64,000 nucleotides of DNA, taken from positions 960,001-1,024,000 of the forward strand of contig OY761159.2 of the NCBI GenBank assembly GCA_963664395.2. Direction: 5' to 3'. Both the position numbers and the translations under genes were made by a program. Origin of the DNA: Candidatus Binatia bacterium (lineage in GTDB: Bacteria; Desulfobacterota; Binatia; Bin18). The stretch's first letter is position 1. The number at the start of each line of letters is the position of its first letter. Shown here piece after piece: positions 53,216 through 58,423 of the stretch. Under the pieces are notes generated by a model. That model was not told the origin of the DNA. It worked only from the letters and a program-made list of their open reading frames with translations, and did not search any database.

Positions 53216-54622
53216 TCACTTCGACCGTCTGAGACAAGGAGGTAACCGACGAAACGGACTATATGGATTTTCGCAACCGAGAGCAGAAAACCCCTCCACG
53301 AAGACCGCACTTAGTCGAGCGATAGACATGTTATTCATTTCCCACACTTGGATCGTGGTAAAGATTATAGAGACAGATAAGACGGTTGCTCCAAACAATA
53401 CCCCAATTGGGCGAATTGGACGGGGGTCAGGCATTGGTTGTACAGGCGGTACTTCGCTGGTCGCAGAGGCGCGACCGGCTACCGTAGGTCCAGGGAGTAA
53501 AAGGCGAGACTTTGATGTTACCTGCCTGGTAAAGCCCCGATGAGTTAATAATTTACCGACCTTCTGAATGTTCTGTGTGAAGCTATCCCGTGCAGCTTTA
53601 ACGACGTAGACACGCTGTTCTTCGATCCACACTAGAATGCGTCTGTTCAGCTGTTGAATTCCAGCGTTTAGGTCTCCAATAATCTGCGCCTCTACTCGCT
53701 CTTTAATGTTGTCCAGATTCTCCCCCGCAAATAGCCCGACGAGTGCCCCGACTCCCGCACCTATGAGTGTCCCTACCCCTGGAGCGATGAAGGTTCCGAT
53801 GATCGCACCCGCACCAACTCCGCCAGTCGTGGCGGTCATCCTATCTATCCCTATATTTTTTGCCGCGGCACTGATCGTAGCCTGTATCCCAGCCGACGAG
53901 AATCGTGGAGGCATAAATTGTCTCTTGGGGTTCAATCCGCGATATTGGAAAATGAGAGCGACCAGACAAAGAGCGAGAGGAATGAAGAGGAGATAGGGTT
54001 GCTTAAACACGATGGCCGGGGGATTCGGGAGAACAACGCAGACTGTAGGCACAAGGAAAGAAACCAGTAGAAACGAATTCCGATATAAGGTGGCCCACCA
54101 GTAACGACGACGCGCGGTATAGAGGTCACGAAAGAGCGAGAACAGAAATTCATCGTCGGCCACCTTCGCACGCTTGCAGAGGCGATCTACTTCCGACTCA
54201 ATGTCGTTAACCAACTCGACCCAGAGATCCTTGATGCGCTCTTTAACAGCCGTATCCAAGTCCGAACTCGATCCTGCTACGTGGATACAATAACGAATGT
54301 TCTCTTTAGCATCCGCAACCGCCTGTTTGTAAAATTCCTCATATACCTTTCCCATCTTTAAGAAGCTCATGTTGATCTGTTCATCAATGTGAGCTTCGTC
54401 GAAAATGTCTGTAGTAACCTCTGCCGTCCGCCCCGAACTAGCAGTTAGACTTTCTGCGATCAGAGTATAAGCCGTTGTGAGCAGAATAAACGGCTGCGCG
54501 TCGGCTGTTTTCGATGTGTCAGGGTGAAGCTGTTTGGCTCGCTCTCGGTAGCGAACCTTGACTTGATCGAGTGAGGCGTTTTCGGGAACGCCGAGAATGG
54601 CATAGGCGGTCGTGAGGTCCAT
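53216..54622 (-). CDS. J-domain (DnaJ) membrane protein with glycine zipper
   Basis: AYAILGV...VKVRYRERAKQLHPD (HPD motif); two TM helices; GGVGAGAIIGTFIAPGVGTLIGAGVGALVG; AT-richer. Confidence 0.8.
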   Translation of the reverse strand: MDLTTAYAILGVPENASLDQVKVRYRERAKQLHPDTSKTADAQPFILLTTAYTLIAESLTASSGRTAEVTTDIFDEAHIDEQINMSFLKMGKVYEEFYKQAVADAKENIRYCIHVAGSSSDLDTAVKERIKDLWVELVNDIESEVDRLCKRAKVADDEFLFSLFRDLYTARRRYWWATLYRNSFLLVSFLVPTVCVVLPNPPAIVFKQPYLLFIPLALCLVALIFQYRGLNPKRQFMPPRFSSAGIQATISAAAKNIGIDRMTATTGGVGAGAIIGTFIAPGVGTLIGAGVGALVGLFAGENLDNIKERVEAQIIGDLNAGIQQLNRRILVWIEEQRVYVVKAARDSFTQNIQKVGKLLTHRGFTRQVTSKSRLLLPGPTVAGRASATSEVPPVQPMPDPRPIRPIGVLFGATVLSVSIIFTTIQVWEMNNMSIARLSAVFVEGFSALGCENPYSPFRRLPPCLRRSK

Positions 54623-57186: not shown

Positions 57187-57296
57187 TGGCTTGCCTCCTT
57201 GTCAGTAGTTTACGATTCCATGCTTCGACTGGACCTAGCCCTATAGGCTAGGCGATACATAACCGGAAAAAACAAAAGGGCACAATCGCGCCTCAC

Positions 57297-57740
57297 TCAT
57301 GCCCTTGTCGGGTCCACAGCAACAATTCCTTCTGTACCATAGCGAACGAAATCAGAGGTGTTCAATGTAAGGATATACGTCACGCTGTGAACCCTCATGG
57401 CAGCCACAAGGCGGGCGTCATATACTTGAACACCTGAAACTCCGAAGGAAACGACAAGCCGACGCCATTCAGTGTATACCGCAGGTGAATCCGGTAAGAG
57501 GGGGAAAAGCCGCTCCACAAAGCGCAGGAGTCGGTCAGCTTTGGCAGAGACCAAACCAAATCCGTTCCTTTCTATTGGCCGAGTAGCGACATTCCAGAAT
57601 TCGACAAAGTTCTGGGGCGTAGCACGCAACCGGTGTCCACCGGCACGGAGCTTCCGCACTGCGGCGCGGATAGTTGCATGAAGCGGGTGAGCGCGGTCTG
57701 CAAATCGCAGCAGGACGTTTGTGTCTACGAGGTAGGTCAC
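57297..57740 (-). CDS. vapC: PIN domain (VapC) toxin
   Basis: YLVDTNVLLR...QNFVEFWNVATRP...VYDARLVAAM...TLNTSDF; acidic catalytic residues present. Confidence 0.9.
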   Translation of the reverse strand: MTYLVDTNVLLRFADRAHPLHATIRAAVRKLRAGGHRLRATPQNFVEFWNVATRPIERNGFGLVSAKADRLLRFVERLFPLLPDSPAVYTEWRRLVVSFGVSGVQVYDARLVAAMRVHSVTYILTLNTSDFVRYGTEGIVAVDPTRA

Positions 57741-57742
57741 AG

Positions 57743-58324
57743 CTAGGGGTGGTCTTCGTAGATGCCCTTACGACTAACGGCGTAGTCTGAGAGCGAAGGA
57801 GCATTAGGGTCAAGGTCCGCCGCAAGAGTATCGGCCAGTTGGTCTGTTGTCACTTCAAATTCAGCCTCTGTCAGTTCGGCGGGTATTTCCTGAAACGCTT
57901 CCCCTCCAAGATGCTTTGCAAGGCAAGTGACGAAGGTCTTGATCTCGTCTAGGGAAAGCTTGGCACGGAATCCATCCCTATCTTCAAATGAGAAGCCACC
58001 CACTTTATCGCCTGCGTTAAAGGGTTCGACTTTGAAGTGCGCGACAGCATTTCTCAACTTCTTGACCACCTGTCTTAGGTTGGGCTGGTGTTCGTGACCA
58101 TACGCGCACTTGCCAGGCTTTATAGAACCCGACCTTATACCCCACTTAGAGAGCGAGTCGAAGTCGTCTTTCGGAATCTTTTCATACAAGGTCTCCTTTG
58201 GAAGGACGAGCAAGCCAAGAAGGCAGTTGACGAGAAGGGTCGCGTCTAGGTTTCCCCCATAGTCATTGACGAGGGTGAGCGTACGACGCATGAAGTCCTG
58301 TTCGAAATCATTTTCGTACTCCAT
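57743..58324 (-). CDS. HEPN nuclease (pEK499-p136-like) fused to an acidic antitoxin-like C-terminal tail
   Basis: TLLVNCLLGLLVLPKE...LRNAVAH (RxxxxH), then ELTEAEFE...PSLSDYAVSRKGIYEDHP*, ending 2 nt before vapC. Confidence 0.8.
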   Translation of the reverse strand: MEYENDFEQDFMRRTLTLVNDYGGNLDATLLVNCLLGLLVLPKETLYEKIPKDDFDSLSKWGIRSGSIKPGKCAYGHEHQPNLRQVVKKLRNAVAHFKVEPFNAGDKVGGFSFEDRDGFRAKLSLDEIKTFVTCLAKHLGGEAFQEIPAELTEAEFEVTTDQLADTLAADLDPNAPSLSDYAVSRKGIYEDHP

Positions 58325-58423
58325 GGGTATCTCCTGAGGATATAGTCTATGACATATGCCCTATTGAGGATGGCCAAGCCTAGCAACTGTTGCAGTATTT
58401 AGCCATCCAATAGTGACAGTCCA

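Follow-up and report, generated by a model that had tools for sequence, protein, structure and literature searches.

A 64,000-nucleotide (nt) stretch of the Candidatus Binatia bacterium genome (NCBI GenBank assembly GCA_963664395.2, contig OY761159.2, positions 960,001 to 1,024,000 of the forward strand), referred to here as the window, encodes what is probably a VapBC-type (type II) toxin-antitoxin (TA) operon with a chimeric antitoxin. The usual view of an antitoxin is that of a DNA-binding head joined to a toxin-binding tail. In this locus the gene in the antitoxin position encodes a 193-amino-acid (aa) protein in which a HEPN domain takes the place of the head and runs in frame into an acidic VapB-type tail, while the next gene encodes a VapC-like PIN RNase. 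The tail corresponds to an antitoxin C-terminus, a PIN of the same subfamily follows, and the 2-nt spacing between the two genes is mostly the same in related loci; it follows that a complete HEPN domain has replaced an antitoxin head. Since this head belongs to a superfamily of toxin and defense RNases, one complex would hold two RNases. The features of the locus, in window coordinates, are as follows.

57746..58324, minus strand: chimeric antitoxin coding sequence (HEPN plus VapB-type tail), 193 aa, ATG start (open reading frame (ORF) list; cluster of 10 variants, all 193 aa)
57743-57745, minus strand: TAG stop of the fusion gene (ORF list)
57911..58324, minus strand: HEPN domain of the pEK499_p136 family, residues 1-138 (PF18736, E 1e-27)
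58037..58054, minus strand: RNAVAH, Rx4H catalytic motif, residues 91-96 (read from the sequence)
57746..57910, minus strand: linker and acidic tail, residues 139-193, 55 aa (tblastn and tail search)
57746..57793, minus strand: terminal motif LSDYAVSRKGIYEDHP, residues 178-193, best conserved block of the tail (alignment A2)
57741..57742, minus strand: 2-nt spacer between the fusion stop and the VapC start (read from the sequence)
57300..57740, minus strand: PIN/VapC coding sequence, 147 aa, GTG start (PF01850, E 5.4e-10)
57297-57299, minus strand: stop of the PIN/VapC gene (ORF list)
57279..57292, minus strand: terminator-like hairpin followed by a T-run, just past the VapC stop (consensus scan, pattern match only)
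58331..58335, minus strand: AGGAG, Shine-Dalgarno-like, 6 bases from the fusion-gene ATG (upstream sequence)

The ORF list places the two genes side by side, the antitoxin-position gene first and the PIN gene after it. Their shared strand, 2-nt spacing and the terminator-like hairpin behind the PIN gene give the gene order of a type II antitoxin and its toxin. No Shine-Dalgarno sequence is visible before the vapC GTG when the sequence is read, which, at a 2-nt spacer, suggests translational coupling of the two genes. A hidden third gene was ruled out, as the ORF list holds no further frame between 57186 and 58424.

A putative portable antitoxin tail

Residues 141-193 of the fusion protein hold 13 Asp/Glu against 2 Arg/Lys, as counted from the translation, and the protein terminates in the LSDYAVSRKGIYEDHP block. 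Neither Pfam nor NCBIfam has a family for residues 139-193. A search of 1.84 billion cluster representatives with the tail alone returned 79 matches at E<=1e-3 (best 1.9e-10). Proteins of at most 110 aa account for 74 of them, and the match lies mostly at the extreme C-terminus; the other five are 123, 132, 143, 656 and 895 aa long, the last two being multi-stretch matches that look spurious. In a 31-sequence alignment of tail proteins (A2), L178, S179, S184, R185 and Y189 are invariant, and the consensus reads EFE.LADQLAD.......P..P.LSDYAVSRAGIYEDHP. The last 21 residues of the fusion protein (173-193) are identical across all ten of its known variants.

The tail aligns with the C-termini of ordinary antitoxins from related loci, residues 43-92 of these 92-aa proteins, behind a head of residues 1-42, corresponding to residues 144-193 of the fusion. 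Four of them (loci L003-L006), compared with the whole window by tblastn, match only at 57895-57746, with 68-76% identity over 50 aa, and no remnant of an ordinary antitoxin head was found by tblastn anywhere in the 64 kb. The N-terminal DNA-binding domain expected of such a protein (RHH, AbrB, Phd or HTH) is absent, residues 1-138 being HEPN. Manual sorting of N-terminal sequences places the tail on at least six kinds of head, among them an M-x-ITLELSP type, a ParD-type RHH (TIGR02606, E 1.7e-9, below cut-off), a Phd type (TIGR01552, above cut-off, locus L079) and a DUF2281/VapB-like helical type. From this distribution the tail appears to behave as a portable toxin-neutralizing module. In an AlphaFold2 (AF2) model its predicted local distance difference test (pLDDT) scores are low, 37-62, with one helix at 151-171, which would fit a segment that folds only on its partner.

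Tblastn with the tail gave no match to plasmids, and a comparison with longer proteins retained only P0001 among 116 candidates, in a search that is weak by the tool's own warning. Two plasmid relatives of the locus encode PINs 53% and 48% identical to that of the window, with upstream 'hypothetical' proteins ending in LSDEAISRESIYGERG and LSDEAISRESIYGDRG.

The head of the tail-bearing P0237 (132 aa), of a further kind, weakly matches DUF7336 (E 2.8e-4, below cut-off). In P0298 (108 aa) the antitoxin tail (…HAVSRAGIY) runs straight into what look like the last residues of a PIN (…EGIVAVDP…), and the protein appears to be a deletion derivative joining an antitoxin to the C-terminus of its toxin. 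P0105 and its 7-member cluster are 108-aa antitoxins that carry the window linker nearly letter for letter, FQEIPAELTGAEFEATADQLADTLAAD, followed by an unrelated C-terminus that lacks the LSDYAVSR motif; these genes lie on Mb-sized contigs.

The PIN toxin and related loci

The 147-aa ORF matches PF01850 (PIN) at 40.4 bits against a cut-off of 23.6 (E 5.4e-10). Its score with TIGR00028 (Mtu_PIN_fam VapC), 49.2 bits, lies below that family's cut-off of 73.6, so the protein is classed as VapC-like in a subfamily other than TIGR00028. The four acidic active-site residues D6, E47, D108 and D130 are present and invariant in a 33-sequence alignment. More than 4401 relatives were found, with 72-100% identity among the 120 matches listed, and the window PIN is an intact member of a very large, highly conserved subfamily. 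A sequence search of the PDB with it finds only a remote VapC, 5k8j (E 8.6e-4), and tblastn against phages gives no match.

The pairing of tail and PIN was followed through 185,579 species, each represented by one genome; a pattern scan confirmed 202 tail-bearing loci, of which the best 80 were examined. A script finds an ORF ending in the motif in 79 of these 80. In 61 a tblastn match to the window PIN begins within about 16 nt after the antitoxin stop (48 full length, 13 partial or split); the remaining 19 have no PIN match, and at least six of these keep its first codons as a 5' remnant. A PIN ORF could be called downstream in 49 of the related loci, and 37 of these have the 2-nt spacer. 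The nearest relatives of the window PIN in this set are 80.7-84% identical to it and have ordinary 92-aa antitoxins as partners; in four of these antitoxins the tail shares 70-77% identity with that of the window. Homology at the antitoxin C-terminus is matched by the toxins: over 50 aa the window tail shows 68-76% identity to the tails of 92-aa antitoxins whose PINs are 80-84% identical to the window PIN.

The reverse arrangement, with the PIN acting as the antitoxin of the HEPN protein, was considered and rejected, as the PIN keeps all its catalytic residues and the tail belongs to an antitoxin lineage. As a side result of the scan, 32 of the 80 loci have an intact antitoxin ORF but a PIN gene that is split, shortened or missing (for example L013, L022, L024, L032, L037, L045, L055 and L067); by this count, orphan antitoxins of the tail family are common.

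These results bear on an earlier description of the locus made from the letters and their translations, here called the sequence-only reading. It had described a HEPN domain with intact RNAVAH that continues in frame into an acidic tail, two nt ahead of an intact vapC, and both halves of that description hold: PF18736 covers residues 1-138 (E 1e-27), the acidic excess is that counted above, and PF01850 matches the PIN with all four catalytic acids in place. Its statement that small proteins encoded ahead of this PIN subfamily have such tails at their ends is borne out by the lengths of 74 of the 79 tail matches and by the PIN that comes next in 61 of 80 loci. Pfam and the tail homology likewise agree with the anatomy it proposed, in which there are two RNase domains and the HEPN protein bears the antitoxin module for the PIN. 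A search with the tail alone, which it had recommended, finds the tail similar to PIN-associated antitoxins. The fusion occurs in 10 variants, and none of these has the stop between HEPN and tail that would have undone the fusion claim.

The HEPN domain

PF18736 (HEPN pEK499_p136) matches residues 1-138 at 97.1 bits against a cut-off of 26.6 (E 1e-27), spanning positions 1-144 of the 152 in the profile. R91 and H96 of the Rx4H motif are invariant in a 95-sequence alignment (A7) from which three H96Y variants and 13 short hits were excluded. In the same alignment the window protein has all ten family-invariant HEPN residues (F11, L31, N33, G37, L38, P42, G62, R91, A95 and H96). The AF2 model used here was built on the 95-sequence alignment, a 13-sequence alignment having given an unusable model (pLDDT 41.5). 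Its pLDDT is 78.7 overall, block means over residues 11-140 range from 71 to 97 and are for the most part near 90 or higher, and the modeled HEPN part consists of helices and a three-stranded sheet.

About 100 relatives are stand-alone 144-aa proteins, for which reason the HEPN domain is probably not constitutively toxic. One relative, P0100 (300 aa), carries a p136-family HEPN at residues 7-140 followed by a 160-aa C-terminal extension that has no Pfam family.

Frequency and history of the fusion

Ten distinct variants of the 193-aa fusion occur on 29 contigs, which come from several sources and reach 5.0 Mb, and no stop lies between HEPN and tail in any of the ten. The same reading frame in so many contigs shows that the fusion is not an artefact. 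A sequencing or assembly frameshift that joined two separate genes would also have to explain a diverged 185-aa relative on five contigs, and the probability of such an error is negligible.

Compared with 5.8 billion clusters, the fusion protein has 105 relatives. HEPN proteins without the tail, mostly 133-149 aa, make up 101 of them; another two, antitoxins of 108 aa, have no match outside the tail or linker. The diverged fusion, P0003, is the 185-aa protein found on five contigs; it matches PF18736 (E 1.8e-27) and has RNAVAH intact. Window and P0003 proteins are identical at 93 of 138 positions in the HEPN part (67%) and at 35 of 43 in the tail (81%), the P0003 linker being 12 residues shorter. 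The tail is the better conserved half of the fusion in this comparison.

The content of G and C at third codon positions (GC3) is 0.61 in HEPN codons 1-128 and 0.51-0.52 in tail and PIN, with neighboring host genes at 0.60-0.66. This split fits different histories for the two halves of the fusion gene, as judged from composition. The simplest reading would be recombination within the HEPN gene, between alleles of the fusion type and the solo type. The fusion itself is best described as a rare but real variant of a bacterial module that is very common. Tblastn with the fusion gave no match to plasmids or phages.

A second large fusion

The tail is also found on one other kind of large protein. 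Two cyanobacterial metagenome-assembled genomes encode proteins of 523 and 524 aa, 90% identical to each other, that end in the window-type tail (L014:1591-3162 and L023:1609-3183). A PIN of the window subfamily follows 2 nt downstream in each (L014:3165-3608 and L023:3186-3629), and the protein cluster to which they belong has seven members. A language-model Atlas assigns residues 1-470 to ApeA_NTD1 and HEPN_Apea clusters (score 0.96, 209/256 features) and residues 265-425 to HEPN_Apea clusters (score 0.95, 30/30 matches). An Rx4H-type motif, RDRNAH, lies at 354-359 and is invariant in six aligned cluster members.

Profile comparisons do not repeat the ApeA assignment. No match to ApeA or any other family was found in Pfam (E<=10), PADLOC (E<=10) or NCBIfam; hhalign between the p136 family and the cluster gives a probability of 0.3; the cluster profile has no significant match in the PDB (best E 0.9); and tblastn of the N-terminal region against plasmids finds nothing. 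The window PIN is 80.7-84% and the cyanobacterial PINs are 78-81% identical to PINs of ordinary antitoxins, while the two kinds are only 73% identical to each other. Because each is nearer to PINs of ordinary antitoxins than to that of the other fusion, the two large fusions are taken as independent. That HEPN heads are favored partners of this tail is a lead rather than a demonstration.

Proposed mechanism

FitA blocks the active site of its toxin with an Arg. The tail of the fusion protein would be flexible alone, fold onto VapC and plug the acidic active site, for which its invariant Arg is a natural candidate; the invariant Ser-Arg pair and Tyr are candidate contacts with VapC. VapB antitoxins are described as wrapping around VapC (PMC3384007), and antitoxins as modular, a small neutralization domain working even on an unrelated carrier, as when Phd-C fused to SUMO neutralizes Doc (in passages of PMC10440598).

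HEPN domains generally dimerize, and a HEPN dimer could take over the scaffold role of the lost head. Operator-based autoregulation has presumably been lost along with the DNA-binding head that HEPN replaces. If the fusion protein were degraded, truncated or not made, VapC would be freed. The HEPN domain would most likely be a latent RNase that is not constitutively toxic, in which case the complex would hold two RNases. Truncation or deletion of the HEPN gene would free VapC, and only missense loss, such as H96Y, would be tolerated. The HEPN domain may serve here as a second effector, a scaffold, an RNA-level regulator or a passenger.

A stronger form of the proposal is that a latent HEPN abortive-infection RNase tethered to VapC by a grafted VapB tail is a recurrent, selected design that has arisen at least twice, once with a p136-type and once with an ApeA-like HEPN, in which the state or integrity of the HEPN protein controls VapC release. 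It could serve as a back-up layer against phages that attack the HEPN effector, or as an addiction device by which a costly defense gene could be neither truncated nor deleted. We regard this as tentative and, on balance, fairly unlikely. If the coupling were functional, the locus would offer a simple and testable example of one effector, immune or toxic, that polices another, and of a TA module shielding a neighboring domain from loss; interest would grow if HEPN-VapC coupling proved both functional and recurrent. Were the HEPN domain a mere passenger, the locus would all the same be a clean natural example of antitoxin domain swapping. The tail is of interest in itself as a compact, portable, putative VapC-neutralizing peptide of about 43 aa (EFE..DQLAD......P.LSDYAVSRxGIYEDHP) that occurs on many heads and has no entry in Pfam, NCBIfam or the PDB.

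Alternative explanations

A number of observations weigh against the chimeric-antitoxin reading. The arrangement is rare, only two of the 105 relatives being fusions, P0001 (the window's own 90% cluster) and P0003. Two scans of the 185,579 species genomes gave no match that covers the HEPN domain. The first, with the two fusion proteins as query, had poor patterns and confirmed nothing; since these patterns fit the window protein, the locus of the window species is not in the reference-genome collection. The second used the pattern SD[YFA]A[VIM]SR[AE][GS]I, which misfits the SDYAVSRKGI of the window, so that P0003-like fusions were detectable and window-like ones were not. The window gene is moreover a mosaic: residues 1-128 are identical to the HEPN-only P0002 at 125 of 128 positions and divergent beyond, residues 129-140 matching P0002 at 5 of 12 and P0003 at 9 of 12, and its present form may therefore be young. 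RNAVAH carries H96Y in three of the ten near-identical fusion variants (P0001, P0311 and P0312), because of which HEPN catalysis may be dispensable. A consensus scan of the upstream sequence gave no sigma-70-like promoter, and no operator was identified. In structural comparisons, Foldseek of the AF2 model found nothing in the PDB at E<=0.001 (best 0.32, with the floppy tail included in the query), a PDB sequence search with the fusion protein gave no match, and a profile of the antitoxins had no significant PDB match (best E 0.73); Pfam is the one source of the HEPN assignment. Neutralization of VapC by the tail is a role that we infer from homology and gene order, and HEPN dimerization, RNase latency and protection against truncation are steps that we infer as well.

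Much of this evidence would also suit a passenger HEPN, with a HEPN gene and the 3' half of a vapB brought together by deletion or recombination, the tail being kept to restrain VapC and the HEPN domain being roleless and decaying. The rarity of the fusion (2/105), the 98% identity to HEPN-only P0002 over residues 1-128 followed by divergence, and the GC3 of 0.61 for that segment versus 0.51-0.52 for tail and PIN all point this way, as do H96Y in three of ten variants beside a last 21 residues without any change, and the frequent decay of PIN genes in the family (32 of 80 loci without an intact PIN). Decay of the head is harder to reconcile with P0003, which keeps both parts after about 33% HEPN divergence with RNAVAH intact, and with the ten of ten family-invariant residues kept in the window; that the only other large head on this tail is also of Rx4H type (RDRNAH) would otherwise be an odd coincidence. 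To judge by the H96Y variants, HEPN catalysis may be dispensable over short times, whereas the intact motif of the diverged P0003 argues for retention over long ones. (P0001 has D115Y besides H96Y.) The sequence-only reading had named a recent chance fusion as its alternative, and this survives in part: the window gene does look like a recent mosaic with a HEPN-only relative, whereas the diverged P0003 has retained both parts, its tail being more conserved than its HEPN domain. A passenger fusion seems rather unlikely.

Two further readings give the HEPN domain an active role. It might be an anti-phage RNase, so that a phage factor degrading, cleaving or sequestering the HEPN protein would free VapC as a second abortive layer, the guard-like design put forward in the sequence-only reading. 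Domain matches and tail homology do couple two RNases physically; pEK499_p136-like HEPNs are reported in operons with restriction-modification, ART/Macro, NamA and Pgl genes (PMC3710099); and the second, independent large fusion to tail and PIN is ApeA-like by the language-model Atlas, ApeA being presented as an abortive tRNA anticodon nuclease in a preprint (bioRxiv 10.64898/2026.01.26.701840). Yet the neighbors are hydrolases, an F420H2-dependent quinone reductase, TauD and SDR genes rather than defense genes, no PADLOC model matches, the fusion has no phage or plasmid matches, and three of ten variants carry H96Y. The ApeA-like call is moreover a language-model lead for which Pfam, PADLOC, NCBIfam, hhalign, the PDB profile search and plasmid tblastn are all negative, and release of a toxin on loss of its antitoxin holds for any type II system and by itself shows no guard. 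Such a back-up defense is judged unlikely. A HEPN that binds or cuts the mRNA of its own operon in a type V-like manner, besides binding VapC, would suit the absent DNA-binding head and the lack of a detected operator-like promoter, and has a precedent in a BrnTA-type antitoxin that both binds its toxin and cleaves the toxin mRNA (in passages of PMC10714953). No Rfam family or conserved RNA element is present in the window, however, and the upstream sequence offers only an overlapping 11-nt palindrome and a 10-nt inverted repeat; RNA-level autoregulation is thus rated very unlikely. The chimeric VapBC-type operon is the reading that we retain.

Relation to known systems

By its predicted products the locus has the gene order and tail of VapBC and lacks the DNA-binding head of VapB. 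It resembles canonical modules such as Shigella VapBC and Neisseria FitAB in its PIN RNase toxin with four acidic residues, in the antitoxin gene placed immediately upstream at 2-nt spacing and in a tail homologous to those of ordinary partners. It differs from them in that HEPN replaces the RHH/Phd-type DNA-binding and dimerization head, and in a tail without a Pfam, NCBIfam or PDB entry. PanA/Panacea and NetFlax antitoxins are comparable in having a short neutralization element separable from a swappable N-terminal domain (in passages of PMC10440598); the accessory domain of the fusion protein, however, is neither Panacea nor a DNA-binding domain but a putative nuclease from a superfamily of toxins. 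Those passages contain no HEPN-headed antitoxin of a PIN toxin.

HEPN-MNT (HepT-MntA) systems are likewise TA operons of two genes, one of them for a small Rx4H HEPN RNase. Their HEPN protein is the toxin, neutralized by a nucleotidyltransferase through AMPylation (as described in parts of PMC3710099 and PMC10714953), whereas the window locus has its HEPN domain, of PF18736 and not of DUF86, on the antitoxin chain and lacks an MNT gene. The locus is not a HEPN-MNT system. In the BrnTA-like pair Aave_1720/1719 the antitoxin is reported as an RNase that also binds an RNase toxin; the BrnT/BrnA folds differ from those of the window proteins, and the RNase activity there is experimental and belongs to an ordinary antitoxin with no added fused domain (in passages of PMC10714953). 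CapRel combines toxin-type and antitoxin-type elements on one polypeptide, but its antitoxin element silences its own chain, whereas the window tail is predicted to silence a separate VapC in trans (from passages of PMC10440598).

ApeA is a single-gene, dimeric, anti-phage Rx4H HEPN RNase (bioRxiv 10.64898/2026.01.26.701840). The cyanobacterial proteins resemble it by language-model features, with tests based on hidden Markov models negative, and the window HEPN belongs instead to the p136 family. The words 'antitoxin' and 'VapC' have 0 occurrences in the text of that preprint. PIN and HEPN are also physically combined in eukaryotic Swt1, where they are covalently fused and the HEPN is inactive (in passages of PMC3710099), unlike the two proteins of the window, which would be joined through the antitoxin tail. 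Table 1 of Anantharaman et al. 2013 (PMC3710099) does not list pEK499_p136-like HEPNs with PIN domains or antitoxin tails. A full-text literature search, in which papers were judged mostly by titles and the starts of abstracts, returned none on a HEPN-headed VapB.

Genomic context

No defense island surrounds the locus, and the window contains no second PIN or HEPN domain. With PADLOC-DB 2.0, 0 families matched either protein at E<=1, nor did any match the fusion at E<=10. Rfam families and conserved RNA elements are absent from all 64 kb. The neighborhood is metabolic, with alpha/beta hydrolases, acyl-CoA dehydrogenases, an amidohydrolase, a SnoaL-like protein and the F420H2-dependent quinone reductase; it also includes DUF1330, a methyltransferase-like DNA-binding protein, a luciferase-like monooxygenase, TauD and SDR. 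Upstream, the fusion gene is preceded by a gap of 99 nt, in which the overlapping 11-nt palindrome lies at 58348-58363 and the arms of the 10-nt inverted repeat lie at 58368-58377 and 58399-58408. Elsewhere in the window, a 468-aa ORF on the minus strand (53216-54622) shows the unusual combination of an N-terminal DnaJ domain with a glycine-zipper segment.

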